A program made the position numbers and the translations under genes. DNA of 34,125 nucleotides, taken from positions 1 to 34,125 of IMG/VR virus record IMGVR_UViG_2563366806_000008; one strand, given 5' to 3'. Source of the DNA: a virus (Duplodnaviria; Heunggongvirae; Uroviricota; Caudoviricetes). The notes under the pieces were generated by a model, which was not told the DNA's origin, made no database searches, and worked only from the letters and a program-made list of their open reading frames with translations. Each line of letters starts with the position of its first letter. Positions within the stretch are counted from its first letter, which is position 1. Below, piece by piece: positions 1 to 33,807 of this stretch.

Positions 1-1362
1 ATGTTTAAACCGGAACTCCTTTCCCCGGCGGGAACGCTGAAAAATATGCGTTACGCTTTCGCTTATGGCGCAGATGCTGTTTATGCGGGCCAGCCGCGTT
101 ACTCCCTGCGTGTGCGCAACAACGAATTCAACCACGAAAATCTTCAGCTCGGCATCAATGAAGCCCACGCGCTGGGGAAAAAGTTTTATGTCGTGGTCAA
201 CATTGCACCGCACAACGCCAAGCTGAAAACCTTTATCCGTGACCTGAAACCGGTGGTGGAAATGGGGCCGGATGCGCTGATTATGTCCGATCCAGGGCTG
301 ATTATGCTGGTGCGTGAGCACTTCCCTGAAATGCCGATCCACCTCTCGGTGCAGGCTAACGCCGTAAACTGGGCGACGGTGAAATTCTGGCAGCAAATGG
401 GCCTGACCCGCGTGATCCTCTCTCGCGAGCTGTCGCTGGAAGAGATTGAAGAGATCCGCAATCAGGTGCCGGATATGGAGATCGAGATCTTCGTTCACGG
501 CGCACTGTGCATGGCCTACTCCGGTCGCTGCCTGCTCTCTGGCTATATCAACAAGCGCGATCCGAACCAGGGTACCTGCACCAACGCCTGCCGCTGGGAG
601 TACAACGTCCAGGAAGGGAAAGAAGATGACGTTGGCAACATCGTACACAAGTACGAGCCGATTCCGGTGCAAAATGTTGAGCCGACGCTGGGTATCGGCG
701 CGCCAACCGACAAAGTGTTTATGATCGAAGAAGCCCAGCGTCCGGGCGAGTATATGACCGCGTTTGAAGATGAGCACGGCACTTACATCATGAACTCGAA
801 AGATCTGCGCGCCATCGCCCATGTAGAACGCCTGACCAAAATGGGCGTGCATTCGCTGAAAATCGAAGGCCGTACTAAATCTTTCTACTATTGCGCACGC
901 ACCGCACAGGTTTACCGTAAAGCTATCGATGACGCCGCTGCGGGCAAACCGTTCGATACCAGCCTGCTGGAAACTCTGGAAGGTCTGGCGCATCGTGGCT
1001 ATACCGAAGGTTTCCTGCGTCGTCATACTCACGACGATTATCAGAACTACGAATACGGTTATTCAGTTTCTGACCGCCAGCAGTTTGTTGGTGAGTTTAC
1101 CGGTGAGCGCAAGGGGGACCTCGCGGCGGTAGCGGTGAAAAATAAATTCTCCGTTGGCGACAGCCTTGAGCTGATGACGCCGCAAGGCAACATTAACTTT
1201 ACCCTTGAGCACATGGAAAACGCCAAAGGTGAAGCGATGCCGGTCGCACCAGGCGATGGTTATACTGTGTGGCTCCCGGTCCCGCAGGATCTTGAGCTCA
1301 ATTACGCTCTGCTGATGCGTAATTTCTCCGGGGAAACCACGCGTAACCCACACGGTAAGTGA
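1..1362 (+). CDS. yegQ: U32-family peptidase-like protein YegQ, complete 453-aa ORF (host chromosome)
   Basis: Full-length ORF in six-frame track; translation MFKPELLSPAGTL... recognised as E. coli YegQ (peptidase U32 family); lies outside the prophage direct repeat. Confidence 0.85.
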   Translation: MFKPELLSPAGTLKNMRYAFAYGADAVYAGQPRYSLRVRNNEFNHENLQLGINEAHALGKKFYVVVNIAPHNAKLKTFIRDLKPVVEMGPDALIMSDPGLIMLVREHFPEMPIHLSVQANAVNWATVKFWQQMGLTRVILSRELSLEEIEEIRNQVPDMEIEIFVHGALCMAYSGRCLLSGYINKRDPNQGTCTNACRWEYNVQEGKEDDVGNIVHKYEPIPVQNVEPTLGIGAPTDKVFMIEEAQRPGEYMTAFEDEHGTYIMNSKDLRAIAHVERLTKMGVHSLKIEGRTKSFYYCARTAQVYRKAIDDAAAGKPFDTSLLETLEGLAHRGYTEGFLRRHTHDDYQNYEYGYSVSDRQQFVGEFTGERKGDLAAVAVKNKFSVGDSLELMTPQGNINFTLEHMENAKGEAMPVAPGDGYTVWLPVPQDLELNYALLMRNFSGETTRNPHGK

Positions 1363-1396
1363 TTAATTTCGATTATTTTTCCCGGATGGAAAATTC

Positions 1397-1439
1397 TTAG
1401 AAACCGATCACATACAGCTGCATTTATTAAGGTTATCAT
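1397..1439 (+). promoter_or_regulatory. Putative cyaR promoter: CRP-like site (ttaga-N6-TCACA, 1397-1412) and -10 TATCAT (1434-1439)
   Basis: TCACA at 1408-1412 with a weak left half-site; site centre about 42 bp upstream of the inferred CyaR 5' end; CyaR is known to be CRP-activated. Confidence 0.4.
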
Positions 1440-1446
1440 CCGTTTC

Positions 1447-1533
1447 GCTGAAAAACATAACCCATAAAATGCTAGCTGTACCAGGAACCACCTCCTTAGC
1501 CTGTGTAATCTCCCTTACACGGGCTTATTTTTT
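1447..1533 (+). ncRNA. cyaR: CyaR (RyeE) Hfq-binding small RNA, about 87 nt, ending in an intrinsic terminator
   Basis: Sequence gctgaaaaacataacccataaaatgctagctgtaccaggaaccacctccttagcctgtgtaatctcccttacacgggcttatttttt matches my recollection of E. coli CyaR; stem cctgtgtaa/ttacacggg followed by T-run. Confidence 0.8.
1507..1533. repeat. Prophage attachment core, left copy (ogr-proximal junction): aatctcccttacacgggcttatttttt
   Basis: Exact 27-bp direct repeat of 33612-33638; coincides with the last 27 nt of cyaR; phage genes start immediately to the right. Confidence 0.8.
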
Positions 1534-1597
1534 ACGTACAACAAATTGAAATAAAAGGATTTATTTCTGGTTAAGTCCACACATTGACCACATCGAC

Positions 1598-1631
1598 AAA
1601 AAAAGCCCCTCGACTGAGGGGCTTTCTGTTT
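1598..1631 (-). terminator. Intrinsic terminator downstream of ogr (possibly bidirectional)
   Basis: Stem gcccctc (1605-1611) / gaggggc (1616-1622), loop gact, flanked by an A-run on + (T-run on minus) and tttctgttt on +. Confidence 0.55.
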
Positions 1632-1635
1632 GTAA

Positions 1636-1854
1636 TTACATCCACATAATTTGCTGCCCTGACGGCAACGGGTGCGGCCTCACGGCGTGGACTTCTCCCG
1701 GCTTCACGATGTATCTCTGTACCGACTCATAAGTGATGAACGTGGCGCTGCAATTCACGTTCTGGCACTGGTGATAACGCTCTTTTGTCGTGTCAGTGAT
1801 ATAGCGACTTGTACGCGCATGTGCGGCATGCTGGCATAAAGGACAATGAAACAT
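1636..1854 (-). CDS. ogr: Ogr, zinc-finger late-gene transcription activator (72 aa)
   Basis: Trimmed to internal Met giving MFHCPLCQHAAHARTSRYITDTTKERYHQCQNVNCSATF... with C-x2-C ... C-x4-C zinc finger; 72 aa as in P2 Ogr; the longer ORF (to 1917) is probably an artefact. Confidence 0.8.
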   Translation of the reverse strand: MFHCPLCQHAAHARTSRYITDTTKERYHQCQNVNCSATFITYESVQRYIVKPGEVHAVRPHPLPSGQQIMWM

Positions 1855-1935
1855 CGCGAGCACCTCTTCCGGTTTTGTTGATGGTGCCATTTTAGTTAAT
1901 TTATCCTTATAAAACAAACAGATAAAATAAAAACA

Positions 1936-3099
1936 TCACTCATCATCTTCTGTTTCGTACTCCACATCAGAAAGCCTGACCTCAAGCTCCAAGGACGTCG
2001 TGAAGCCGCTATTATTCAGAAAATGTGTCACCTTAGTGATTGTCCAGTCCTGCTCGTCTATGACGCGCTTAAAGCCTGACACTCTGACCGGTGTTTCCGT
2101 GTAAATATCTGCACGACCGGTAGCCAGGATGATGGAGAACTCCGCAACGCCCCGTTGCAGTTTGTCCCACTTCGCCTGAGCAGCACGCATGGCCTGTGCT
2201 TTCGTGGCATATACCGTAGTCAGGGCAAAAACGTTGTCAGCCTCACCGGCCATGTATTCACCTTCGCGCGCTTCCGGTACTTTTGGCGCTTTCTTCTGCG
2301 TGACCAGTTTTGCTTTCGGGTGCTCCAGTGCGCGCAGGTGTTTTTCTTTCTTTTTGCGTTTCAGTTTTACCTTCTGCTTTTGTGGTTTCGGGTCTTTGGT
2401 GTGTAACCACTTTGCCGTTACGCCGGTATAGGCTCCACGGTCAGCAATCGCAAAATGATGGCGGTCGCCGTCGCTGCGGGTTATGGTGACCTGCGGGATT
2501 TTTTTACCGCTGGCCGTCACCCCCTGCCCCGCTTTGAGAAACAACAGTTTTCCCATTTTTACCGACACCTCACCGCCGTTGCGTTCTGCAAGACGGGTCA
2601 GGAATTTCGCATCAGACTCCTGCGACTGGTCGATGTGCGGGATTTTAATTCCGGCCAGTGACGGAGCGACACTGGCTTCCAGCCTGTTACGGGAGGCTAT
2701 CGCCTCAACAATTGCACCGAGCGTTGTGTCATGCCAGGAGCCTTCCCGGCGGGAATTAAGCGTCCCGCGGAAATCTGCACTCCGGGCACGGATGGTAACC
2801 ACATCCGGCGCGCCCCGGTGTTCAACCTCATCAACGGTAAATTTCCCTTTGCATACCAGGGCAAAGCCTTTCCAGCCGATATACACCGTCAGGACAGCGC
2901 CACGAACCGGCAGCCCGACCTGCCCGTCAGCATCGTTCAGTTCAATATCAAGCTGGTCAGCTTCAAAGCCCCTGTTATCCGTCAGGGTCATACTCATCAG
3001 ACGGTCGCTGATATTGCCGGTAATATCCCTGCTGTCGAGCATCAGCATGTAATCCGGCGTCAGCGTACTGCCTGCATCAAATGTCAGCGCATCCAGCAT
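1936..3099 (-). CDS. D: Tail protein D (387 aa)
   Basis: Position between ogr and U; 387 aa, same length as P2 gpD; the K-12 remnant yegZ derives from this gene. Confidence 0.8.
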   Translation of the reverse strand: MLDALTFDAGSTLTPDYMLMLDSRDITGNISDRLMSMTLTDNRGFEADQLDIELNDADGQVGLPVRGAVLTVYIGWKGFALVCKGKFTVDEVEHRGAPDVVTIRARSADFRGTLNSRREGSWHDTTLGAIVEAIASRNRLEASVAPSLAGIKIPHIDQSQESDAKFLTRLAERNGGEVSVKMGKLLFLKAGQGVTASGKKIPQVTITRSDGDRHHFAIADRGAYTGVTAKWLHTKDPKPQKQKVKLKRKKKEKHLRALEHPKAKLVTQKKAPKVPEAREGEYMAGEADNVFALTTVYATKAQAMRAAQAKWDKLQRGVAEFSIILATGRADIYTETPVRVSGFKRVIDEQDWTITKVTHFLNNSGFTTSLELEVRLSDVEYETEDDE

Positions 3100-3578
3100 T
3101 ATCCCGCCCCCGTCATCCCCGTGAATCTGGTCGCCATACTGCCAACCTTACCGATGAGCGACTCCGCCTGTTTACCGATATCGCCATAAAGCGCGGCCAG
3201 TGATTCATCAACGCGGGTGAGCGACAGCGTAAAATCAATTTTCCGGGGTGTGCCGTCTGAAAAGAAAATACTCCCTGTTTCACTCACCCTGCTGATGACA
3301 TACATGCCGTAAATCATGCCGGTGCCATCCAGCAACGGCCACGCCCGACCTTCCTCTGCCATCAGCCTGAGCGTGGTCATCGTCAGCTTTCCGCCTGTCA
3401 GTTCGGGATAAAGCACACCGGCAAGCGTAATGTTTTCCTCACCCACACCGAGAAACTGGTAGGCATCCCGTTTACCGATACGGGAATTTGACGGCCAGCG
3501 ATAATCTGATTCACGCTGCATGGTCTGGTGTGGCAGCGTCTGGCGCATAAAAACAAACATACCTAACGCGAGCATCAT
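3099..3578 (-). CDS. U: Tail protein U (159 aa)
   Basis: Synteny T-U-D and 159-aa length as in P2 gpU. Confidence 0.75.
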   Translation of the reverse strand: MMLALGMFVFMRQTLPHQTMQRESDYRWPSNSRIGKRDAYQFLGVGEENITLAGVLYPELTGGKLTMTTLRLMAEEGRAWPLLDGTGMIYGMYVISRVSETGSIFFSDGTPRKIDFTLSLTRVDESLAALYGDIGKQAESLIGKVGSMATRFTGMTGAG

Positions 3579-8524: not shown

Positions 8525-9751
8525 TCAACCTTTCAATGCTTCAATCGTATTATTAAGTCGACGCAACAGGTCGTCGTACGTCAATATGTCTATCATGTTG
8601 GCGTACTTACGTTTGATTATCTCAAAATCAAGCAACTGACCGTCGGTCATGTTACCGTTCGCTATCTGATCGCGTCCGACAATGATGATGGCTTTTGGGT
8701 TAGATATACGAATACACATTCCCGCTGGCAGAGAATTCTTGTAGGCATTCGTAAGCTCTTTTTCACCCTTAACACCCCATTTAGATAAATGAAAAATATA
8801 CTTTTCAGCCTGCATAATACCGCCGCTAAGTTCTGATGTAGGAATATAGTTATCGCGATAGGGCGTCTTGCGAAGGATCTTATCATCAAACGGCTTTTTG
8901 ACTTCGATGATATCAAGGTTGCCGTTTGCATCCACCAGTGCAATGTCTATAAACCGATTTGTTTTAGCCGAAGGATTAGAGTAATAGTCGAAAATTTTAA
9001 CCTTCTCGAGGACCTTGATATATTTTGGAAAAAGTAATGTGATGAAGGGTATCATCAGGCTCTGCCAGTCATCTTCAGACAAGTTAGTTTTGTTATTCAA
9101 CGCATCCTGGATAATGTCTCTTATGAGTGTATATTTCTCAATTTCGAGCTTATTTAAAACTTCTAAATCCAGTTTGTCGGTTTTTCTGATCACTGTTTTT
9201 CTGTTTAGGTAATGTTCATACCGTTCGCGAGCATCTTTCATACCATCAAGATAACCTGCGAGAATAGCGTGAACCCTTGCATTAGCATAGCGATCCAGTT
9301 CCCCTGTGTTGGGGAATTTACTTTGCAACTCCTGGAATACGCTTTTTGGTATAGCTTCCGGCTTATCTCCTCCGATGATGATGGGATTAGTGTGATCGAG
9401 TAGTTTTGAAAGCCGACCAAAAATGGAGACGTTGCGTTCTGACGCAAATACTTTCCTTTCAAGCTTGATGGACTTATGTATAAGGACATCTCGATTAATG
9501 CTTAGAATCCGTCCCGGAACTGTTATGTATTCATTATTAAGCGTGCCAAAATTAAAGGAATATTCGTAATCATTAAAATCCTGAACGGTTGACGGTGGGT
9601 TTCTCAAGTCCTGGAGTTGAAAGTTAAAAATTCGTGAAATGCATACTGTTTGAAATTTATTTAAACTCTCCCAAACCCAAATTATTTGTTCTCCGCTGTC
9701 ACCGTCGTAAGTCATAACAACGTCATTTGATACAAAGCTGAACTGTAACAT
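8525..9751 (-). CDS. Cargo protein (408 aa): N-terminal domain of unknown function plus C-terminal PD-(D/E)xK / RecB-like nuclease domain; candidate anti-phage effector, possibly Shedu (DUF4263)-like
   Basis: AT-rich ORF in the G/FI slot with good RBS (agagga) before ATG at 9751; motifs FIDIALVD (D269/D274), IIEVKK (E283-x-K285) and QAEKY (Q314-xxx-Y318) match nuclease motifs I, II, III. Confidence 0.6.
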   Translation of the reverse strand: MLQFSFVSNDVVMTYDGDSGEQIIWVWESLNKFQTVCISRIFNFQLQDLRNPPSTVQDFNDYEYSFNFGTLNNEYITVPGRILSINRDVLIHKSIKLERKVFASERNVSIFGRLSKLLDHTNPIIIGGDKPEAIPKSVFQELQSKFPNTGELDRYANARVHAILAGYLDGMKDARERYEHYLNRKTVIRKTDKLDLEVLNKLEIEKYTLIRDIIQDALNNKTNLSEDDWQSLMIPFITLLFPKYIKVLEKVKIFDYYSNPSAKTNRFIDIALVDANGNLDIIEVKKPFDDKILRKTPYRDNYIPTSELSGGIMQAEKYIFHLSKWGVKGEKELTNAYKNSLPAGMCIRISNPKAIIIVGRDQIANGNMTDGQLLDFEIIKRKYANMIDILTYDDLLRRLNNTIEALKG

Positions 9752-10572: not shown

Positions 10573-12501
10573 TTACACCTGTGCGACGTTATACCATGTT
10601 CCATTGATGTATTTTTGTATTGGTCTGAATACTGCGGGGTCATCACCATCGACTTCACCGACAATACCAAGCCCGGTAATTACGTGCCCTGCTTTCTCAT
10701 ACATCACACCTTTTTGCATAGTCTGAACAACACGTGTGCCCAGGCGAATATCTCGTACATAGCGAGAATCCGATTCATCTTTGGTATATGCACCAACATC
10801 TCCCGCAGAGGGTTTGCGGGTTGTGGTGTAAAACTCTGACCAGTCAGCCTCAAATCCATAACCATCACGCGCTGAACGATAATAAATACCGCCGTTCTTA
10901 TAATTCACACGGAACTGTACGGCAGGGCAACTCCCCTCGCTCATATTGAAATGGAGGATTAATGTCGATGCGCCACCAATATTTGCTTGATAGACCCCGC
11001 TATTCCAGTTCCAGCCAACAGCTTTATCATTTCCGACAGTGCTTCCTGTTTTCCCTAAAGCAAATGCAGGCTGCTGGTTTTTCGTGTTGTAGTCTCGTCG
11101 CCAGCCAGGAGCATAAGCATCACCATGATTAATATAAGTGAATTGAGCGTTAGTGGTGCCGCCTCCGGTGGAAGTGCTTGGTGTTGTTACACGGATGGTC
11201 ATGGCACCTTTATTACCCATAACCTCAATAACGCAACCTGCAAGATGAATAGTTCCACAGCCAGTATCGGTAATAATTTTATTATTGCCGTATGACCATG
11301 AACATTTGCACATCCAGTACGGATGATTAAATGCACCACGGGAATCCAGCCATTCAATAAACTGAGCGGTTGTCCAGTTTCCGGCTTCAGTGCTCAAAGC
11401 GCCGCTATAAGCACGACAGGCACCGATATTTTTCGTGAAGGTATCCTTTCCCGGAATATCCGCACCGTTCTGATCTTTCTGAAGACGTTTTTCAGCATTG
11501 TCATAGGCAGACTTCACTGCTTTTGGTGTTGCGGCCAGCGTTTCAGAATCACTGTTGGTGGCGCTACTGAGCTGGACAAGGCCTTTTCGCGCCGTGGTGG
11601 CATCCTGCGCAGTGTATTTCCCGTTAGCAAGGTCATACGCTGTCTTAACCGCCTTTGGCGTTGCTGCAAGCGTTTCAGAATCGCTGTTGGTGGCGCTACT
11701 GAGCTGGACAAGACCTTTTCGCGCTGTGGTGGCGTCCTGTGCAGTGTATTTCCCGTTAGCAAGGTCATATGCTGCCTTTACCGCTTTTGGTGTTGCGGCG
11801 AGCGTTTCAGACGTGCTGTTGGTGGCGCTACTGAGCTGGACAAGGCCTTTTCGCGCTGTGGTGGCATCCTGCGCAGTGTATTTCCCGTTAGCAAGATCAT
11901 ACGCGGCCTTTACCGCTTTCGGCGTTGCGGCCAGTGTTTCAGACGTGCTGTTGATCGCACTGCTTAACTGAGTAAAACCTTTTGCGGTCAGCGAGGCGTC
12001 CGGGTGACGTCGTGACTGTTCATGCTCTGCAATTTTGTCATCAACGTAATCCTGCGTCGCCATCACCGTTGTGGTGTCAATGGTCAGCGCCACTGAGGCC
12101 ACACTGCTGACGATGATGACCATGCGACAGGTCTGCGAACGCCCTGAGCCTTCGGCAAGAGCTGGCTTATAACTTTCGGCCATGTTCGCCACGGCAATTA
12201 ATGTTCCCGCATCATCGTACAGGCCAAGCTCACGCATCCAGAAACCGCCCACCTCCGGCGGAATAACCAGCTCTGCGATAATATAATTACTGTTTCGTTT
12301 GTCCTGGCTGATTTTGTTCAGCGCATGTCGCCAGACTTCATGGATAAGCCCGGTCTGTCCGGCATCCGGGACAGGCAATTTACCACCGCCATCCCCGACG
12401 GCCATCGTGGTAATGTTGACCTTCCGCCCTCCAGGCGCGGTTGCCGCTGCCAGCTTTGCTGCACCGGCAGTGGTGATAACGGTTCTGAATTTTGTGCTCA
12501 T
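10573..12501 (-). CDS. H: Tail fibre protein H (642 aa)
   Basis: N-terminus MSTKFRTVITTAGAAKLAAA... typical of P2-type fibres; internal SETLAATPKAVK fibre repeats; variable C-terminal part. Confidence 0.85.
   Translation of the reverse strand: MSTKFRTVITTAGAAKLAAATAPGGRKVNITTMAVGDGGGKLPVPDAGQTGLIHEVWRHALNKISQDKRNSNYIIAELVIPPEVGGFWMRELGLYDDAGTLIAVANMAESYKPALAEGSGRSQTCRMVIIVSSVASVALTIDTTTVMATQDYVDDKIAEHEQSRRHPDASLTAKGFTQLSSAINSTSETLAATPKAVKAAYDLANGKYTAQDATTARKGLVQLSSATNSTSETLAATPKAVKAAYDLANGKYTAQDATTARKGLVQLSSATNSDSETLAATPKAVKTAYDLANGKYTAQDATTARKGLVQLSSATNSDSETLAATPKAVKSAYDNAEKRLQKDQNGADIPGKDTFTKNIGACRAYSGALSTEAGNWTTAQFIEWLDSRGAFNHPYWMCKCSWSYGNNKIITDTGCGTIHLAGCVIEVMGNKGAMTIRVTTPSTSTGGGTTNAQFTYINHGDAYAPGWRRDYNTKNQQPAFALGKTGSTVGNDKAVGWNWNSGVYQANIGGASTLILHFNMSEGSCPAVQFRVNYKNGGIYYRSARDGYGFEADWSEFYTTTRKPSAGDVGAYTKDESDSRYVRDIRLGTRVVQTMQKGVMYEKAGHVITGLGIVGEVDGDDPAVFRPIQKYINGTWYNVAQV
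11497..11982 (-). repeat. In-frame tandem repeats within H: about 3.7 copies of a 132-bp (44-aa) unit KGLVQLSSATNS(T/D)SETLAATPKAVKAAYDLANGKYTAQDATTAR
   Basis: Read directly from the H translation (residues about 174-335) and the near-identical DNA units starting near 11521, 11653, 11785, 11917. Confidence 0.8.
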
Positions 12502-15010: not shown

Positions 15011-15754
15011 ATGGATAAATATCAAATCTGGGAAAATCAAAAAGACACCATCGCCCACCAAGAGTATTTAAAAATCTCCGACACCAATTTACTTGGACAT
15101 ATGCATATTGCCAATTACGAAGTTGTCCAACATGAATTAAGCAAATTCAACTCCCCTGACATTGTTTCCCGTCATTCATTTAACAGAGACAAATTTAAAA
15201 AAGAACATTTAAACATATCAAGACACCTTTTCAATTATATATCTTCAGCATTATCATTTAGAGATTCAACGCGCAACCTACTTAAAACAAAAGCATTAAA
15301 TATTGCCGACATTAAAATCAAATCAGAGGCATTCATCAATCATGAATTCCGAAATAATCCAGTAATAAAATTAATGGAGGATTTAAGAAACATCCTGACG
15401 CATCAAAACATGATCGCCCCATCAATATCATCATTCATGCACCTCCAAAGAAATATAAACATGCACGGCTTTTCATTTAAGATTGAAAGAATCTTAAACA
15501 ATGACAGAACCACCAAACAAACAAAAGAATATTTAATCTCACTAAAGCAAAAAAACTTATTCATTTTACCGATAATAGAAGAATACCAATACACGACTCT
15601 TAAGTATCAACACTGGCTTTTAGCAAGTATCTACACTGTTCATCAAGATACTTACCAAGAATACTGGAATGCGAGAAAAAACATCATGAACGAATGGGGA
15701 GGAGACACTCAGCTAATACCTAAAGAGAGTGAGCTCACTTATTTAACCAGATAA
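15011..15754 (+). CDS. Cargo ORF of unknown function (247 aa), opposite strand to the late operons; candidate accessory/defence gene
   Basis: Strongly AT-rich ORF with RBS aagaagga before the ATG; Asn/Lys/Ile-rich; occupies the S/V junction (P2 orf30 position) on the opposite strand; contains R126-x4-H131 (RNILTH). Confidence 0.6.
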   Translation: MDKYQIWENQKDTIAHQEYLKISDTNLLGHMHIANYEVVQHELSKFNSPDIVSRHSFNRDKFKKEHLNISRHLFNYISSALSFRDSTRNLLKTKALNIADIKIKSEAFINHEFRNNPVIKLMEDLRNILTHQNMIAPSISSFMHLQRNINMHGFSFKIERILNNDRTTKQTKEYLISLKQKNLFILPIIEEYQYTTLKYQHWLLASIYTVHQDTYQEYWNARKNIMNEWGGDTQLIPKESELTYLTR

Positions 15755-21304: not shown

Positions 21305-22159
21305 TCAGCAGTTCGTCATCAGGGCGTCACCGCCACCGCCGGTGGCCTTGCTGCGGCGCTGCTGGGTCAGACTTTCGGTGTGGTCGAGACTGTTTTTCAG
21401 GCGGCTGAATGCCTGGCTGGTTTCATCCGCCCTGTCAGTCACCTCCTGCTTAAGTGCGGAAAAGGCGGTTTCCATCTCAGCGAGTCGCTGCTCAGTGGCG
21501 CTCAGCTTTTCCTGCACATGTTCAGCAACAGCGGTCACCGCTTCATGCACGTCATTCAGACGGGCGTCATCGCTGGCCTGTTTGCGGCCAAAAATGGATT
21601 TCACCTTTTCGGTCAGGGCGGTGAACACGGTTTCAGGCAGGTCTTCAAATTCCAGCTCAACAGGCGTTGCCACTGAAATCAGGTTTTCAGGGCTTAATTT
21701 GAAGCGGTTCAGGGGGTTGTGTTTTGCCGTGCGGCAGAATTCCAGGTATTCCGTGCCGAGGCTTGCCGGGTCATCGGTGACGGCCAGACCCACCAGATAA
21801 CATTTGCCGGTGTTGGCAAAGTTCGGCTGAATTTCCATTGAGGTGTAGACCTTCTGCGCGGCCTTGTTCATCGCGATAAGGTCATCGGTCGGGGTGATTT
21901 TCGCAAACAGCGCCCATTTGCCTTTCAGCGCCGAATCGTCATCAATCTTTTCGGCCTTCAGTTCGGCCACATCGCCATAACGTTTAAAAATACCGTCAGG
22001 CAGGATGCCGCGCAGATGTTCCAGGTTAATGCGGCAACCGTAGACACGCGGGTCAAAGGTTTCGGCCATTTCCTGAATATCCTGCGCACTGATGACACGC
22101 CCGTCACAGGTGTCACCCTCAACGCCGATACGAAAGAATTTTGAGACTTTTTTTGCCAT
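21305..22159 (-). CDS. O: Capsid scaffolding protein O (284 aa)
   Basis: Trimmed to MAKKVSKFFRIGVEGDT...; 284 aa as in P2 gpO; divergent from P. Confidence 0.8.
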   Translation of the reverse strand: MAKKVSKFFRIGVEGDTCDGRVISAQDIQEMAETFDPRVYGCRINLEHLRGILPDGIFKRYGDVAELKAEKIDDDSALKGKWALFAKITPTDDLIAMNKAAQKVYTSMEIQPNFANTGKCYLVGLAVTDDPASLGTEYLEFCRTAKHNPLNRFKLSPENLISVATPVELEFEDLPETVFTALTEKVKSIFGRKQASDDARLNDVHEAVTAVAEHVQEKLSATEQRLAEMETAFSALKQEVTDRADETSQAFSRLKNSLDHTESLTQQRRSKATGGGGDALMTNC

Positions 22160-25542: not shown

Positions 25543-26472
25543 TCAAACCAGGCTTTTGCCTTGCTTCATTTTTTTAGATGAGTCTAAAAATTTGAAATTA
25601 TCATTAGATGAAAATATTCTTTCTGCGGTATGCCGAATGACTGAAGTATTGAAGACCGCAGCCTGCTCCTCATTACAACTGAATACACCCTCATGACCAT
25701 CAAACTCGCCCGCCAAAAGAAGGTTTTTTGATACTGGGAACAAAACTAAAGTGTCTTTTACACCAAACCCGGGGGAATAAGGGCCTCGTGCTAATTCAGG
25801 ATTAGTCCACATTAAGCAAACTGGGTTATCTGAAGTTATAAATGACCCTTGCCCATCAGATATGGTCATAAGTGACCAGTTGCGTTGATGCAACAACTTG
25901 GTGATAACAGGTACACATTTCATTTCCATATCTATCATGAACTCTCTGATTACATTGATTTCGAAATTATCCCCATCCACAAAATTTTTAATTTTTTCGT
26001 AAGCGAGATCATATGGCAAAGACTCACCCATTTCTTTCTCATAAGCTAATTTGCAATCGTCCCAACGCTCAGCCGAACTAACTGAGGATTTCATGATAAA
26101 CTTTGCTATTTGTTTCAATGGAGATGATAAATGTTCTCGCTGAGCAGGCGTACGTATTGCCAATAAGGAAATAAACTCCAGAATAACATCTTTGGTTTCG
26201 CCTGAAAACTCGCCCCCCTCCTCAAGTTTTCTTAAATGAGTAGCGACACTGCCTTCAAACTCTGCAAGAGAACTCTCGAGATAGTTTGGGTCAACTCCAT
26301 CCAATTCTAATCGGTTGAAATCTCTAACCCCCCCGACATTGCGAGTATTACTCTCAAAGGTTTTGCGCTCCTTTAAATCTATTACAGTTAATTTTGATTT
26401 TTTCCCCCCATTACTTGTAAACCCTTTCAAATAACATTGGGATAAAAAATGATGATGCCTTGCAACACTCAT
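25543..26472 (-). CDS. DUF4238-type cargo protein (309 aa from Met at 26472); candidate single-gene anti-phage protein
   Basis: AT-rich ORF in the tin/old slot; N-terminal HHFLSQCYLKGF resembles the DUF4238 signature (HH-x-x-P/S-Q-x-YL-x-x-F); RBS ggag before ATG at 26472; ORF extends upstream to 26514. Confidence 0.65.
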   Translation of the reverse strand: MSVARHHHFLSQCYLKGFTSNGGKKSKLTVIDLKERKTFESNTRNVGGVRDFNRLELDGVDPNYLESSLAEFEGSVATHLRKLEEGGEFSGETKDVILEFISLLAIRTPAQREHLSSPLKQIAKFIMKSSVSSAERWDDCKLAYEKEMGESLPYDLAYEKIKNFVDGDNFEINVIREFMIDMEMKCVPVITKLLHQRNWSLMTISDGQGSFITSDNPVCLMWTNPELARGPYSPGFGVKDTLVLFPVSKNLLLAGEFDGHEGVFSCNEEQAAVFNTSVIRHTAERIFSSNDNFKFLDSSKKMKQGKSLV

Positions 26473-26575
26473 ACTCAGCTCCGTTATGGCTATAATCGCA
26501 TAAATAATAAGCACTTATATTGCAATCATCTAGTTAAATACACAATATTTATGACTCCGAAATTTCATTAAATCA

Positions 26576-28789
26576 CTATTGATAGGTTTTACCAATTAGT
26601 GCCAGCTCGAAATGGATGCGTGGAATCTGCGAACGTTCAGCCTTTTTCATCCGCCCTGATGGCGCTATCTGGTACGGTTTTAATGGTTCGCAGTTTCTTT
26701 GTTGCCAATTCGGTCTCGGTGCACCATGTTTTAATGCACTCCTGAGCACCGTCACAACTTCCGGGTCATCCCATCCGATAACACCACTATCAACCAGATT
26801 TAACACCGCTGCGGCATGCTCAGACGGTGTAGGGTGCATAACCGGAACGTCACCGCCGGTGAACTTTCCACAGTTATTGACAGGACTCCGAGGCGCGGCG
26901 ATGCCGCTTTTTAAAGTCAAAGGCTCAACGACCGGCACTTTCGGCACAATGCGCCAGTCCGTCGTTCTGGTGATATGAATATGACGCGCGCCGAGATGCG
27001 GCGCGTAAATGCCGACCACTCTCTCGACTTCTTCCTCGTACTCGTTAACTTCATCCGACGGACTACGGGCGACCCTGACAGTCTGACAATCGCGCGGGAC
27101 ATTTGCCCCGCCCTGCGCGCTGATATACAACGCAAAATCACCACTGTCTGCGGCGGCGCGTGCAACCTCGACGCGTTCGTCAAACTCATCAGCAATGCTG
27201 ACGCCGCGAGGCAATTTGCGTAGTTCACGGTAAGCCCCCATTGTCGGCAGGCCAACCGTTTTAAATTGCGGGATGCGCCACGTTGACGCCCATGCGGTAA
27301 CAGCCGCCGCTGTGTCTTTCAGCGGCCTGCCGGTATCGTTATCGAGCTGACCATCCAGTGCATAGCCGTCGATGTTTTTTGAAATGTATTTCGCGATATA
27401 TCCCGCAGCACCGCCCCGGTTAAGGTGTTTTGCCTGAAAACGGTTTCGCGCAGCTCCTCTTTCGTCTCCATCCTCTTTGAGCGCGTAGCGACGCATGATT
27501 TCGATAATCTGGTTACGCTGGCGTGGATTACAAAAAAGCATCATATGCCAGTGCGGCGTTCCGTCGTGGTGTGGCTCGACGACACGCAAACCGTAGACCT
27601 GTAAATCATTATCCTTGAATGCCGTGCGCATCAGGCTCCAGATGCGGCAGAGATAACGCTGCGCATCCTTTGGATTAAATGCCTCATCGTTCCAGCCGTG
27701 ATTAAGCTGAACGGTTTTACTTTCGCCTTTTCTGACCTGACGTGTCGGGTGATACTTTGACGGCGCGGTCAGCGTGATAAACATCCCCACATCACCCTCT
27801 GCGGCGGCGTAACGCTCAATACCGGCAATGGTGTTCATCAGCTCCATCCGGCGAATTTCAGGATTAGAAATACTGCCCATCACCTTACTGATAAGGTCGA
27901 TGCGCTCGCCGGTTTCCCTGTTTTCAAGGTCACACGATTTAAGAAATTCCAGATTTGCCTGGCGGCGTGCACGCACATCACGAATGGCATGTTTACTGGC
28001 ATAAGGAGAACGGTCTTTATTGACCTCCCCGACAGCAATCAGTAACGCCTCATGCCAGCGCATACGCTGGCCTTTAAGCTGATGAGTCCACCACTCATCG
28101 TTAAACAGACGGGCAATGGCAGAATATGCCTGCCTCGTGGTCATCTGCCCTTTACGGTATTTTTTCCAGTAGAGCGGGGAAATATTGAAAGCACGTGCAG
28201 CGCCAGCAACATGACCATAGAGGTGAGCCTGCGCCTCATCCGTAAACAGCGATTCTTTTTCGCCATGCGCATCCACCCAGGCATCGCTGAGTTCCTCATA
28301 CATCATGAAAAGCTGCGATGAGATACGGGCAGCAAACTTTTTTAGCTCCTTATCATTCATTCCCGGCAGGCGCGCATAGTGGTCACGCTCTGCCAGAAAC
28401 AGTAACGACGCGTCGGTGTTCATTTCATGGCGCTGATTCACACGCTCAATGCGCGGCCATAAACGACGCTGAAAAGTGGATGTGAGGAAATAAAACCCGT
28501 GCACCGGGCTTTTATTGCGCCGGATGTAGTCATAGCGTGAAGTAAACAGCGAGCGCAAAAAGTAAGGCAGGCGGTTAATCGTGGATAAAACACCTTGCAC
28601 CTGACGCATCTCGTCACGTGTAAGGGGTCTTTCGCGCCCGACGGCCTCGCGTGGCGCGTTCCATGCATAAGCACCGGTAAACGCCTTACCGGTGCCTGCG
28701 GCAAATGCTGGCGGAGGGACAAAACGCCCGGAGGCTTTAACGGCCATATGAGCCAAAAGCCTCTGAACAACGCTTGCTGAGTTGCTCAA
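26576..28789 (-). CDS. A: Replication initiation protein A (rolling-circle nickase, 737 aa)
   Basis: Large last gene of the early operon; N-terminus MSNSASVVQRLLAHMAVKAS...; somewhat shorter than P2 gpA as recalled (761 aa). Confidence 0.8.
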   Translation of the reverse strand: MSNSASVVQRLLAHMAVKASGRFVPPPAFAAGTGKAFTGAYAWNAPREAVGRERPLTRDEMRQVQGVLSTINRLPYFLRSLFTSRYDYIRRNKSPVHGFYFLTSTFQRRLWPRIERVNQRHEMNTDASLLFLAERDHYARLPGMNDKELKKFAARISSQLFMMYEELSDAWVDAHGEKESLFTDEAQAHLYGHVAGAARAFNISPLYWKKYRKGQMTTRQAYSAIARLFNDEWWTHQLKGQRMRWHEALLIAVGEVNKDRSPYASKHAIRDVRARRQANLEFLKSCDLENRETGERIDLISKVMGSISNPEIRRMELMNTIAGIERYAAAEGDVGMFITLTAPSKYHPTRQVRKGESKTVQLNHGWNDEAFNPKDAQRYLCRIWSLMRTAFKDNDLQVYGLRVVEPHHDGTPHWHMMLFCNPRQRNQIIEIMRRYALKEDGDERGAARNRFQAKHLNRGGAAGYIAKYISKNIDGYALDGQLDNDTGRPLKDTAAAVTAWASTWRIPQFKTVGLPTMGAYRELRKLPRGVSIADEFDERVEVARAAADSGDFALYISAQGGANVPRDCQTVRVARSPSDEVNEYEEEVERVVGIYAPHLGARHIHITRTTDWRIVPKVPVVEPLTLKSGIAAPRSPVNNCGKFTGGDVPVMHPTPSEHAAAVLNLVDSGVIGWDDPEVVTVLRSALKHGAPRPNWQQRNCEPLKPYQIAPSGRMKKAERSQIPRIHFELALIGKTYQ

Positions 28790-29759: not shown

Positions 29760-29822
29760 AACTTTCTCCAGGCAAAAAGAAGCCCCGCACGATTAAGTGC
29801 GTTAAAAACTCTGGTTAATTAC

Positions 29823-30323
29823 TTAATGCAGATATTGCTCTGGTTTTACCGACGTCAGAATTGTCGGTGCATACTCAAACAGGCTGAATAATTCACGTAA
29901 TGCACGGAATAAAGCATCACGCCAGTAACATGACTCTTCATTAATTCGCCAGTATGGCTGGTTGAATTCTTTTTCAGTCAATCCGGCATGCATAAATAAA
30001 GTACGACGCTGACTGACTGTTAAAAAACTAATATATGCATACTCACTTGCGCCAACCTGACGGCGTTTTGAGAATGCCCCACGCAATTCATCAATTGCAC
30101 ATACCAGTCGTTCACGTTCGACATCATTCATTTCTTCAAAACGCATCGTTGCGTGACGCTGTTTTAACTGCGCATGGAAGCAAACCGTTAGCCGTTCACG
30201 TTCCATCATCTGATTATAATAATCGCATGTCTCCTGCCAGCGAGGGACGGCCAGATGCTTACCAATTATCCGGCGCATAGCTGCTGGCTGTTTTTCAACA
30301 AGATTGAGCGTCATCACTGTCAT
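29823..30323 (-). CDS. B: Replication protein B (166 aa)
   Basis: 166 aa as in P2 gpB; RBS ggaggg before the ATG; position between cox side and A. Confidence 0.8.
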   Translation of the reverse strand: MTVMTLNLVEKQPAAMRRIIGKHLAVPRWQETCDYYNQMMERERLTVCFHAQLKQRHATMRFEEMNDVERERLVCAIDELRGAFSKRRQVGASEYAYISFLTVSQRRTLFMHAGLTEKEFNQPYWRINEESCYWRDALFRALRELFSLFEYAPTILTSVKPEQYLH

Positions 30324-30355
30324 TTCCAGACCCTCCGACTTTTCAGAAAGGTCAG

Positions 30356-31576
30356 TGTAGATTCAATCTGTCAATGCAACACCCCTTTCAATTATCTCTT
30401 TCGGTGTTTTGAACTTCAGTGTCTTTCTCGGTCTGTTGTTTAGCTGAGCAGCAACCAGATCTAGTTCATGTTGAGTATATTGGGCAAGACATGTCTTTTT
30501 AGGAAAGTACTGCCGAATTAGCCCATTTGTGTTCTCATTTGTTCCCCGCTGCCAAGGACTCTGAGGATCGCAGAAGTAAACTTTAACGCCGGTGCTGACA
30601 GTAAATTCTAGATGTCTGGCCAGTTCCATTCCTCTGTCCCATGTCAGTGATTTTCTGAGTTCTGACGGTAAACTCAGGAATTTGTCGGTAAGAGCCTGAT
30701 TTACTGAGACAGAATCTTTGCCCCTGAGTCTAAGGATGATCGTATAACGTGATTTTCGGTCTACAAGTGTGGCTATATGAGAGTTTTTTGTACCTGAGAC
30801 TAAATCGCCCTCCCAATGCCCCAGAGAGCGTCTGTTATCGATATTTCGGGAACGTTCGTGAATTGGTGTTCCGTTCACTATGTTAATCGTACCTCTTTCG
30901 CCTTTGCGGGTATGACGCCTGCCATGGCGAAGGCTATGCGACCGTCGCAGATGCTGTATATTCAGGTGGTGTAGCGCTTCACGGCTACGAAAGTACAGCG
31001 TTTTATAAATTGTCTCAGGTGATATTCGCAGCGTTTTTTGACGTGGTTTTGTTCGCCTTAACCATCCTGATATTTGCTCTGGAGACCATTTCATCTCCAG
31101 CTTTTCCAGAACAAGCTTTCGCAATGGTAAATTTTGATCCAGTAAGCACGGTTTTGGCCTTTTCGCCATTCTGTTGGCTCGGTTATTAGCATCAACAGCT
31201 TTGTAATAGCGTCTGCCCCGATTACGCTGAACTTCACGTGAGATCGTCGAAGGACTGCGATTCAGCGCAGTAGCTATCGCACGAATGCTCATTTTGGCTG
31301 ACAAACCAGCTCGTATCTCCTCGCGCTCAGACAGTGTCAGGTGAGCTACAGCCCGCTTACGCTCATGGGGTTTTATGCCGCCAGTATCCCTTAACATAGT
31401 GAAGATCGTTCCGGGTTTTGAACCCAGGATATTCGCTATTTCACTGAAGCCTGTTCCGTTCTTCCATAGTTCAAAAACAGAGGCTTTTTCCTCTGCTGTA
31501 AATGTTCGTCTCATTCAAAAAACCTCCGCAACCCCATGTTTTCACATAACTGTTGCGTTGACCAATTGAATCTACA
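30356..31576 (-). mobile_element. IS30 insertion sequence, 1221 bp, with imperfect 26-bp terminal inverted repeats and 2-bp AG target-site duplication
   Basis: Ends tgtagattcaatctgtcaatgcaaca (30356-30381) and tgtagattcaattggtcaacgcaaca (reverse complement of 31551-31576); flanking AG at 30354-30355 and 31577-31578. Confidence 0.9.
30363..31514 (-). CDS. insI: IS30-family transposase (383 aa)
   Basis: Translation MRRTFTAEEKASVFELWKNGTGFSEIANILG... with HTH N-terminus and DDE catalytic region; 383 aa as for IS30 transposase. Confidence 0.9.
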   Translation of the reverse strand: MRRTFTAEEKASVFELWKNGTGFSEIANILGSKPGTIFTMLRDTGGIKPHERKRAVAHLTLSEREEIRAGLSAKMSIRAIATALNRSPSTISREVQRNRGRRYYKAVDANNRANRMAKRPKPCLLDQNLPLRKLVLEKLEMKWSPEQISGWLRRTKPRQKTLRISPETIYKTLYFRSREALHHLNIQHLRRSHSLRHGRRHTRKGERGTINIVNGTPIHERSRNIDNRRSLGHWEGDLVSGTKNSHIATLVDRKSRYTIILRLRGKDSVSVNQALTDKFLSLPSELRKSLTWDRGMELARHLEFTVSTGVKVYFCDPQSPWQRGTNENTNGLIRQYFPKKTCLAQYTQHELDLVAAQLNNRPRKTLKFKTPKEIIERGVALTD

Positions 31577-31737
31577 AGAGCCTTCTTTAACGGACTCTGT
31601 TTTTTGGTGCGGATAATGATTCCCTTGCGTCCCTTACCGTGGGTAATGGTGAAGTCAATCGCCCTGGGGCTTTCGTTACGCAGTAACTGAGCAATACAAC
31701 GAGGCTCATTCATACGGTTCTCCTTAACGTGGTTCAC
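31577..31737 (-). pseudogene. Small early-operon ORF (orf78-like) truncated at its 3' end by IS30
   Basis: The track ORF 31471-31737 is a chimera: about 53 phage codons then read-through into the IS30 end; re-joining the flanks by hand restores about 12 codons ending at the B start. Confidence 0.4.
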
Positions 31738-31999
31738 CGAGACCTAACCACATCAACCAGCCGTCACGAATCTCTTTAGGGCGGCTTTCATAAGCCAGTT
31801 TTAGTCCGTTATTCCATGCCGGAAGGTATACCCAATATTCACCTGCACGACCTGAAGCTGATTGTGGATCGGTCATATCAATTACAGGCAGCTTTCCTTT
31901 ATCGATCATCCGACGAACCGCTCCTGTCGATTTTCCTATTAGTTTTGCGAACTCCTGATAAGGAATCGCATCAGTCATGAGTGTTACTTGCTTGCTCAT
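31724..31999 (-). CDS. cox: Cox, excisionase and repressor of Pc (91 aa)
   Basis: MSKQVTLMTDAIPYQEFAKLIGKSTGAVRRMIDKGKLPVIDM... with HTH; 91 aa, first gene of the early operon, divergent from C. Confidence 0.85.
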   Translation of the reverse strand: MSKQVTLMTDAIPYQEFAKLIGKSTGAVRRMIDKGKLPVIDMTDPQSASGRAGEYWVYLPAWNNGLKLAYESRPKEIRDGWLMWLGLGEPR

Positions 32000-32036: not shown

Positions 32037-32120
32037 TATAATGCCTTTTAGTGCCCACATCCAAGCACTAAACAATCTACATCTAAACTAAATACTATTG
32101 AGATCTAAACACTATGTCAA
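32037..32120. promoter_or_regulatory. Immunity switch: Pc -10 TATAAT (32037-32042, +); Pe -35 TTGACA (32115-32120, minus) and -10 TAGTAT (32092-32097, minus) flanked by two ATCTAAAC direct repeats (32081-32088, 32103-32110) 22 bp apart
   Basis: Motifs read directly; face-to-face promoters with direct-repeat operators flanking the Pe -10 match the known P2 C-repressor operator architecture. Confidence 0.5.
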
Positions 32121-32413
32121 ACACGATAAGCGAGAAGATAGTCTTAATGCGAAAATCTGAGTATTTGAGCAGACAACAACTTGCTGATTTAACAGGGGTT
32201 CCGTATGGCACGCTGAGTTACTATGAAAGTGGTCGTTCAACACCTCCAACAGATGTCATGATGAACATCCTGCAGACCCCACAATTCACCAAATACACTT
32301 TATGGTTCATGACAAATCAGATCGCTCCTGAGTCCGGGCAAATTGCGCCCGCTCTCGCACACTTTGGGCAAAACGAAACAACGTCGCCCCACTCCGGTCA
32401 AAAGACTGGTTAA
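32114..32413 (+). CDS. C: Immunity repressor C (99 aa)
   Basis: 99 aa as in P2 C; N-terminal HTH (LSRQQLADLTGVPYGTLSYYESG); upstream of int. Confidence 0.85.
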   Translation: MSNTISEKIVLMRKSEYLSRQQLADLTGVPYGTLSYYESGRSTPPTDVMMNILQTPQFTKYTLWFMTNQIAPESGQIAPALAHFGQNETTSPHSGQKTG

Positions 32414-32528: not shown

Positions 32529-33542
32529 ATGGCAATCAAAAAACTCGATGATGGTCGATATGAAGTGGACATCCGCCCTACTGGACGTAATGGAAAACGC
32601 ATCCGTAGGAAGTTTGATAAGAAAAGCGAAGCTGTCGCTTTCGAGAAATACACGTTGTACAACCACCACAATAAAGAATGGCTATCAAAACCAACAGACA
32701 AGCGACGTCTGTCGGAGCTGACACAGATCTGGTGGGATTTAAAGGGTAAACACGAAGAGCATGGGAAATCTAATCTTGGAAAAATTGAAATCTTCACAAA
32801 AATAACGAATGACCCATGCGCATTTCAAATTACGAAATCGCTTATCAGCCAATACTGCGCCACCCGAAGAAGTCAGGGTATTAAACCTTCGAGTATCAAT
32901 CGTGATTTAACATGTATTAGCGGCATGTTTACAGCCCTGATTGAAGCGGAGTTATACTTTGGTGAGCACCCTATCAGAGGGACAAAAAGGCTTAAGGAGG
33001 AAAAACCAGACACAGGCTATCTCACGCAGGAAGAAATTGCCTTACTGCTCGCAGCTCTTGACGGCGACAACAAAAAGATTGCGATTCTTTGCCTGAGTAC
33101 TGGAGCACGTTGGGGAGAAGCAGCTCGTTTGAAAGCAGAAAATATCATTCATAACCGCGTCACGTTTGTTAAAACGAAAACAAACAAACCACGCACCGTC
33201 CCGATCTCAGAGGCTGTTGCCAAAATGATCGCGGATAACAAACGAGGTTTTTTATTCCCTGATGCTGATTACCCTCGCTTCAGACGAACAATGAAAGCAA
33301 TAAAACCGGATTTGCCAATGGGGCAAGCCACACATGCACTAAGGCACAGCTTTGCCACTCATTTCATGATTAATGGAGGAAGTATTATCACGCTACAACG
33401 GATACTAGGTCACACGCGGATTGAGCAAACTATGGTTTACGCTCATTTTGCTCCAGAGTACCTTCAGGACGCCATTTCTCTTAATCCGCTGAGAGGTGGT
33501 ACTGAGGCCGAGAGTGTCCACACAGTGTCCACAGTAGAGTAA
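32529..33542 (+). CDS. int: Tyrosine integrase (337 aa)
   Basis: 337 aa as in P2 Int; C-terminal catalytic motifs (ARWGE, HALRHSFATH, LGHTRIEQTMVYAH with the Tyr); ends about 70 bp before the att core. Confidence 0.9.
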   Translation: MAIKKLDDGRYEVDIRPTGRNGKRIRRKFDKKSEAVAFEKYTLYNHHNKEWLSKPTDKRRLSELTQIWWDLKGKHEEHGKSNLGKIEIFTKITNDPCAFQITKSLISQYCATRRSQGIKPSSINRDLTCISGMFTALIEAELYFGEHPIRGTKRLKEEKPDTGYLTQEEIALLLAALDGDNKKIAILCLSTGARWGEAARLKAENIIHNRVTFVKTKTNKPRTVPISEAVAKMIADNKRGFLFPDADYPRFRRTMKAIKPDLPMGQATHALRHSFATHFMINGGSIITLQRILGHTRIEQTMVYAHFAPEYLQDAISLNPLRGGTEAESVHTVSTVE

Positions 33543-33611: not shown

Positions 33612-33638
33612 TGACACCCTAAATCTCCCTTACACGGG
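33612..33638. repeat. Prophage attachment core, right copy (int-proximal junction)
   Basis: Exact 27-bp copy of 1507-1533; here followed by one extra T and the inverted repeat gggcttat / ataagccc. Confidence 0.8.
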
Positions 33639-33807
33639 CTTATTTTTTTATGCATAAGCCCTATCTCTGGTAACCGTCTTCCATTGACCACATCGATAGA
33701 ATCCTCCTTCATAGCACGATGCCTTTCACTTATCGGCATCGTGCTCCCACAGGTTCCGGCTACGCACAGCCAGAACGCGCATATTTGACGCTTACCAAAA
33801 AATATTC

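Follow-up and report, generated by a model that had tools for sequence, protein, structure and literature searches.

Phages that carry insertion sequences (ISs) are already known, as are ISs inserted into phage operons and hot spots for IS30 in phage DNA. Phage P1 bears an IS30 hot spot. IS30 is reported to choose either near-palindromic hot spots or sites beside its inverted repeats, with 2-bp target duplications (PMC9333248); a natural hot spot of phage lambda, denoted LHS, lies at about position 33,290 (Olasz et al. 1998, as cited in PMC9333248). Complete ISs are carried by the wild-type temperate phages P1, HK022 and Sf6, and by the P2-like Burkholderia phage KS5, which contains ISBmu23 (PMC3091744). 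In the record of phage P2 (AF063097) the early promoter Pe drives an operon of cox, orf78, B, a putative terminator, orf80-83 and A. Here we analyze a stretch of 34,125 nucleotides (IMG/VR virus record IMGVR_UViG_2563366806_000008, positions 1 to 34,125; referred to below as the window) that contains a P2-type prophage whose orf78 is interrupted by a complete IS30. We estimate a probability of about 0.75 that a standard, active-looking IS30 transposed recently into a preferred, near-palindromic target at the 3' end of orf78 in an otherwise intact prophage, and that expression of the replication genes B and A is probably lowered.

The element spans positions 30356-31576 (1221 bp), with the sense strand of its transposase on the minus strand. 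The plus-strand sequence at 30356-30381, TGTAGATTCAATCTGTCAATGCAACA, has an imperfect inverse at 31551-31576, ending at 31576; these 26-bp imperfect terminal inverted repeats agree at 23 of 26 positions. The first is the right inverted repeat (IRR; 30356..30381, minus strand), which lies on the B side and bears an outward TTGACA -35 hexamer, and the second is the left inverted repeat (IRL; 31551..31576, minus strand) on the cox side. An intact transposase open reading frame (ORF) of 383 aa occupies 30363..31514 on the minus strand, as identified from the ORF list and by Pfam, with an N-terminal helix-turn-helix domain (HTH_38, 1.6e-23) and a C-terminal DDE domain (rve/DDE, 4.1e-14). The target-site duplication is the 2-bp sequence AG, present at 30354-30355 on the B side and at 31577-31578 on the cox side. 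A length of ∼1221 bp with 26-bp inverted repeats, a single 383-aa ORF, a 2-bp duplication and a target of the hot-spot type are thus all found together, as in the IS30 class. The window copy has the modal IS30 sequence, without a single difference from 14 copies at unrelated sites, one of them in Serratia, and its transposase gene shows 0 nucleotide differences from the copies annotated WP_001254932.1. The element is a textbook IS30, and its host is a textbook P2-type prophage. An initial annotation of the window had proposed a complete IS30 with a 2-bp AG duplication at 30356-31576, lying between Pe and cox on one side and B on the other, with its transposase co-oriented with the early operon. 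The structure of the element bears this out, as do the flanks and the empty site of relatives, the gene positions, and the placement of cox, transposase and B on the minus strand.

IS-free relatives match both flanks over 1728 bp, compared with 2951 bp in the window, and are therefore shorter by 1223 bp, which corresponds to IS30 (1221 bp) plus the 2-bp duplication. The closest of them is Escherichia coli Res13-Lact-ER01-35 (NZ_CP062901), with flanks 99.9% identical; phage P2 (AF063097) follows with 98.3%. The empty site reads GGTC-AG-AGCC; it holds one AG fewer than the occupied site, and the observed flanks fit insertion at the first AG only. Chance is excluded as an explanation by the exact 1221-bp match together with the target duplication. 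A comparison with IS-free relatives had been suggested in the initial annotation as a way to confirm the insertion site, and relatives lacking exactly 1223 bp at this place do so; the accompanying expectation that such relatives would mark the element as ancestral is reversed, because they show the insertion to be the derived state.

The broken frame is orf78 of P2 (171 bp, 56 aa; phrog_273), which is annotated in AF063097 and is also intact in an IS-free locus of our collection (L001). IS30 follows codon 46 of the 56, so that residues 1-46 are kept and 10 codons (TFLKSRRVWK) are severed; a truncation of this frame had been anticipated, with the number of lost codons put at about 12 rather than 10. 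The 5' part of the gene, codons 1-46, is located at 31577..31713 on the minus strand (tblastn with residues 1-47 of P2 Orf78, ORF list and P2 annotation). The severed 3' end, consisting of the last 10 codons and the TGA stop, is left at 30320..30353 on the minus strand, where the TGA overlaps the B start codon as ATGA. From the truncated end, the orf78 frame continues for 34 codons into IS30, up to 31471, to give an 80-aa fusion, and RefSeq has this fusion ORF in E. coli strain ABWA45 as well. Orf78 matches phrog_273, a family of unknown function, across all 56 positions, which makes the lost tail part of the conserved protein; Pfam revealed no domain for Orf78 or B.

The target itself is near-palindromic: on the operon strand it reads AAAGAAGGCT-CT-GACCTTTCT. 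To place it among other IS30 targets, we gathered IS30 copies by IS-internal patterns from 46 IMG/VR loci and 17 genome loci, and their flanks revealed a palindromic preference of the form ...ATTAAAAAAGGCnN-NN-NnGCCTTTTTTAAT.... A half-site profile of 13 collapsed half-sites, none of them from P2 sites, places orf78 second among the 32,866 positions of the IS-free window (z = 3.8). This profile was then extended by 8 half-sites of other insertions in E. coli. Ten E. coli IS30 sites obtained from flank-extending BLAST hits were biased towards the orf78 site, and only those halves that had not been selected by similarity to it were used for this reason; with the added half-sites the orf78 position ranks fourth of 32,866. 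The homologous position in P2 ranks fourth of 33,557. A literature search for a published IS30 hot-spot consensus yielded nothing usable. Among the gathered copies, three related targets containing ATATTAAAAAAAGC were occupied in both orientations in different contigs (L010/L041, L011/L035 and L059/L012). Several copies lacked matching duplications, which suggests recombination between IS30 copies. In many O157:H7 genomes (for example L071, NZ_CP033605.1) another IS30 was seen in a P2-like D-gene remnant, with a flank that shares 9 bp with the B-side flank of the window.

To determine how common the allele is, 5426 complete E. coli genomes were searched. The empty junction was present in 1667 of them, at ∼1900 places (240-bp query across the site), and the occupied junction was fully covered, with queries across either junction, in three: ABWA45 (NZ_CP022154), O157:H16 98-3133 (NZ_CP051001) and MFDS1001074 (NZ_CP106929). 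The cox-side junction was also found in two metagenome contigs, OLIE01000484 and OLOC01000016. The exact pattern of the left (B-side) junction had no match in a one-genome-per-species collection, IMG/VR or metagenomes. All 76 matching P2-like phage records were empty at the site, each of them shorter there by exactly 1223 bp, a count that is uninformative because only ∼0.1 occupied record would be expected by chance. Junctions, orientation and AG duplication at the other occupied loci are identical to those in the window. The prophages of the three occupied genomes differ from that of the window in having a different Cox (118 aa), C and integrase, and are integrated next to pflA. MFDS1001074 differs from O157:H16 by 1 mismatch and 1 gap in 6966 bp, chromosomal flank included, and OLIE01000484 differs from O157:H16 by at most one position over the 700 nucleotides of cox-side flank compared; by these alignments the three belong to one lineage. 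OLOC01000016.1 (L082, a 168-kb contig) has the same cox-side junction and a third cox/C type, over the 1.5 kb compared.

Two of these prophages carry further lesions. Only 13 kb remain of that in O157:H16 98-3133 (L084, NZ_CP051001.1 2537300-2573300), where the terminase gene P is truncated and fused next to U and the late genes O through T have been lost. The prophage of ABWA45 (L083, NZ_CP022154.1 1828000-1864000) is complete save for the essential tail gene R, annotated as frameshifted (locus 21530-21998), possibly through a sequencing error. Such decay would fit relaxed selection after insertion, in a sample of three and given that many P2-like prophages are defective anyway.

The window, ABWA45 and O157:H16 allowed the history of the insertion to be followed through the divergence of its surroundings. 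Between the window and O157:H16, 27 of 856 positions differ in the B-side flank and 7 of 137 in the cox-side flank, together 34 of 993, as against 0 of 1221 in IS30; the corresponding values for the window and ABWA45 are 13 of 856, 5 of 137 and 2 of 1221. ABWA45 and O157:H16 differ by about 2% in the phage part of the locus and at 2 positions in IS30. Flank divergence thus amounts to 1.8-3.4%, compared with an IS divergence of 0-0.16%. The single-nucleotide polymorphisms (SNPs) nearest to the two IS ends lie at 17 and 9 bp for the window and O157:H16, at 17 and 51 bp for the window and ABWA45, and at 56 and 9 bp for ABWA45 and O157:H16. With SNPs so near the IS ends, a single ancestral allele could have moved between backbones only by crossovers that fell, on every occasion, a few bases from the IS. 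The simpler reading of these alignments is that IS30 transposed into this dinucleotide independently at least three times.

We next consider the operon into which IS30 was inserted. Pe is located at 32092..32120 on the minus strand (promoter scan, TTGACA-17 bp-TAGTAT), a position that matches the annotated Pe of P2. It is followed by cox at 31724..31999 on the minus strand, which encodes a protein 100% identical to P2 Cox and, being upstream of the IS, is unaffected; the gene for the immunity repressor C (32114..32413, plus strand) likewise encodes a product 100% identical to that of P2. Gene B, required for replication (lagging-strand synthesis), is intact at 29823..30323 on the minus strand, and its product is 98.8% identical to P2 gpB. 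Between the IS end and the downstream B ATG there are 30 bp, and B retains its own GGAGG, 8 nucleotides upstream of that codon. A terminator-like hairpin just past B (29786..29801, minus strand) is part of the P2 backbone heritage and matches the putative terminator annotated in P2. Further down the operon, past B and orf80-83, the replication endonuclease gene A is intact at 26576..28747 on the minus strand, and an ORF of equal length, 723 aa, is annotated in locus L006. Gene A encodes 723 aa in both the window and a close relative, compared with 761 aa in P2; similarity to P2 stops ∼150 bp before the P2 stop codon, at the border of the old/tin variable locus, and the ori nick region is kept.

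Insertion of IS30 increases the distance from Pe to the B ATG from about 540 to about 1760 nucleotides, and the transposase ORF stops 40 nucleotides before that ATG. A standard scan detected no canonical intrinsic terminator within IS30 on the operon strand. With a more permissive scan, two weak structures consisting of a hairpin and a T-run were seen on that strand at the 5' end of the transposase gene, at 31561-31513 (-12 to -13 kcal/mol) and at 31496-31468 (-9.9 kcal/mol). Literature searches for work on IS30 terminators and polarity (Dalrymple and Arber) and for sig5, an IS2 insertion mutant of P2, gave nothing usable, and our statements on IS30 terminators rest on the present scans. The outward TTGACA of the IRR provides the -35 hexamer of the IS30 junction promoter (PMC9330008, PMC9333248), so that a hybrid promoter at the IRR/B junction was a candidate. 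It was rejected: the hexamers 16-18 bp past TTGACA read ACCTTT, CCTTTC or CTTTCT, none of which is a -10, and the promoter scan found no sigma-70 promoter at this junction. With no -10 at the appropriate spacing, the hybrid-promoter mechanism of IS30 is unavailable here. Folding of the RNA as a means of hiding the ribosome-binding site of the transposase in read-through transcripts was also dropped, since the junction RNA folds no better than shuffled sequence (z = -1.5 and -1.1).

From this arrangement we propose the following consequences. Transcripts from Pe would probably cross IS30 to yield a cox-orf78'-insI-B message with some loss, either by partial termination or, should translation of the transposase frame be poor, by Rho-dependent polarity. 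B, orf80-83 and A would be transcribed only by read-through from Pe over the 1.2 kb of IS30, or weakly from the IS30 promoter itself. This weak promoter could provide a low, repressor-independent transcription of B, which the hairpin after B (29801-29786) would limit before A. An ATGA overlap often couples translation and could, by inference, couple orf78 and B in the intact operon; here the overlap between the orf78 stop and the B start would be broken and B translation no longer coupled to orf78, which would itself lose its conserved last 10 residues. The longer distance between Pe and B, the broken ATGA, the two weak hairpins and the lack of a new promoter at the IS/B junction all point to attenuation, and expression of B and distal A after derepression would probably be lowered, though not abolished. 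It is plausible that the prophage is replication-impaired through this reduction. By P2 genetics, Cox and Int act upstream of the lesion, and P4 satellites depend on the late genes of P2 but need neither A nor B, so that no effect is expected on immunity, excision, helper function or the defence cargo. Such a prophage would still confer immunity, carry its defence genes Shedu and DUF4238 and help P4-type satellites, and it may be a poor plaque former.

Apart from the insertion, the prophage has the properties expected of a P2-type phage. It extends over 1507-33648 (BLAST against P2) and is 32,142 bp long with IS30, whereas P2 has 33,593 bp; being smaller than P2, it should not be hindered in packaging by its size. 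The 27-bp attL core at 1507..1533 is repeated exactly as attR at 33622..33648. Integration took place between yegQ and yegR, with the integrase gene adjoining yegR, and this yegQ/cyaR/yegR site is the place of the ogr-D' remnant in K-12. P2 gene order, the essential early and late genes, the att cores, integrase, C and cox are all present. A tblastn search with 42 P2 proteins recovered every essential gene at full length and without stops, in keeping with the earlier view that the structural genes and cargo are intact, and no second lesion besides IS30 was found in the prophage. C, Cox, X, Y, K, W, FII and Ogr are 100% identical to their P2 counterparts and Int is 99.4% identical. The P2 genes that are absent or replaced are the non-essential orf30, fun(Z), orf91, tin and old. 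In their variable loci, the prophage carries a Shedu SduA gene in the Z/fun locus (8525-9751, minus strand; PADLOC 1e-219), a gene for a 247-aa protein of unknown function in the orf30 locus (15011-15754, plus strand; phrog_12680) and a DUF4238 gene in the old/tin locus (25543-26514, minus strand; PADLOC 'DUF4238-Pers', 2e-219). The tail-fibre gene H (10573-12501, minus strand) contains a tandem repeat of a 132-bp (44-codon) unit at 11500-12001, with 3.4 copies at 89% identity; the unit is present as a single copy in P2, and H departs from its P2 counterpart in the C-terminal part. Among the 5426 complete genomes there is no near-identical IS-free twin of the entire prophage (best match 97.4% over 91% of the query), so that the age of the insertion is not bounded in that way.

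Several of our findings weigh against a recent, recurrent and harmful insertion at a preferred target. IS30 copies are almost identical everywhere; identity of the IS was accordingly rejected as evidence of common descent, and by the same token it cannot by itself date the insertion. The experimentally defined lambda hot spot at 33290 ranks 625th of 48,466 positions with the 13-site profile and 52nd with a 28-site profile, a poor score that marks the profile as rough, so that the ranking of orf78 supports rather than proves its being a hot spot. The orf78 sites are all occupied in the same orientation, whereas elsewhere IS30 hot spots take hits in either one; with three events a single orientation has a p of about 0.25, which is not significant and leaves room for shared descent or selection for orientation. 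The shared orientation and dinucleotide of all five occupied loci could be explained by one ancestral orf78::IS30 insertion that then spread among P2-like backbones by homologous recombination. P2-like phages are mosaic, their cox/C/int module switches right beside orf78, and the locus on OLOC01000016.1 (L082) is only 2 nucleotides from that of O157:H16 (L003) in the orf78 flank, yet carries the third immunity type. We nevertheless consider such a spread unlikely: in the three-way comparison flank differences occur on either side of the IS, 9-56 bp from its ends, the flanks have diverged far more than the IS they enclose, and the site scores independently as a top IS30 target. That target preference alone also accounts for the recurrence of independent hits at one site, which could otherwise be taken as a sign of domestication, the host favouring an insertion that cripples replication while immunity, defence cargo and satellite-helper functions are kept. 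The Shedu and DUF4238 cargo and the untouched Cox, int and late genes would suit this explanation; occupation of only 3 of ∼1900 sites in complete genomes argues against appreciable selection, and P2 is not SOS-inducible, so that an intact prophage costs little to begin with. Selection by the host is thus highly improbable.

A stronger contender concerns the effect rather than the origin of the insertion. IS30 may be neutral for the phage and simply ride in a viable one, if enough B and A is made by transcription that starts at Pe and reads through the co-oriented transposase gene. The same features that speak for read-through, namely the lack of a canonical intrinsic terminator in the standard scan, a transposase ORF that reaches to 40 nucleotides before the B ATG and the retained GGAGG of B, favour this possibility, as do a genome that is below P2 in size even with the IS and the functional IS-carrying phages P1, HK022, Sf6 and P2-like KS5 (PMC3091744). 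It is opposed by the weak terminator-like hairpins at the start of the transposase gene, by the loss of the conserved Orf78 C-terminus and by the state of the other occupied prophages, one a remnant and one with R annotated as frameshifted; none of the 76 phage records carries orf78::IS30, in line with the low chance expectation given above. We regard a neutral insertion as possible, yet doubtful, and favour lowered expression of B and A from the recent insertion into a preferred target. A more far-reaching proposal is that the co-oriented insertion places the transposase under the strong, repressor-controlled Pe at an orientation-biased natural hot spot, the orf78/B junction, and so couples IS30 activity to derepression or infection. 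Transposition of IS30 would then be switched on at derepression or new infection, the phage would serve as a delivery vehicle for IS30, and B and A would be throttled; we think this very unlikely.

For annotation, orf78::IS30 should be part of the label of this P2-type prophage, and it should not be taken for granted that the prophage can replicate. The locus offers a natural test of the polarity that a co-oriented IS30 imposes on an essential phage operon, and it would add a third temperate-phage IS30 hot spot to those of P1 and lambda. Recurrent independent hits at one dinucleotide, together with further decay in two of the three other lineages, outline a possible path to the fixation of P2-like prophages in the chromosome with their defence cargo kept. 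Current understanding is not challenged by these results. The point for which we found no description in the searchable literature, whether as IS30 insertion in P2-like prophages or as a recurrent IS30 target, is the orf78/B junction of P2-like phages.

Compared with known systems, the element shares length, inverted repeats, transposase, 2-bp duplication and nucleotide sequence with IS30 as defined in ISfinder and with the insI copies of E. coli K-12; it is without difference from these, and its location alone is particular. The prophage has in common with P2 (AF063097) the gene order Pe-cox-orf78-B-orf80..83-A, the att core, Pe and several 100%-identical late proteins, and differs from it in the interrupted orf78 and in the replacement of fun(Z), orf30 and old/tin by Shedu, the protein of unknown function and DUF4238. 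The other occupied prophages differ in turn from that of the window, which combines P2 immunity, the yegQ-yegR site and an otherwise intact genome. Like lambda LHS, a near-palindromic target of the type AAA..GGC-NN-GCC..TTT that is not an inverted repeat, the orf78 site belongs to a temperate phage, takes repeated hits at one dinucleotide and is duplicated over 2 bp; unlike LHS, it is placed at the orf78/B junction of the P2 early operon and has so far been hit in one orientation. P1, HK022, Sf6 and KS5 resemble the window in being temperate phage genomes with a complete IS, but the IS of KS5 is intergenic and disrupts nothing, whereas that of the window lies inside an operon, upstream of two essential replication genes.

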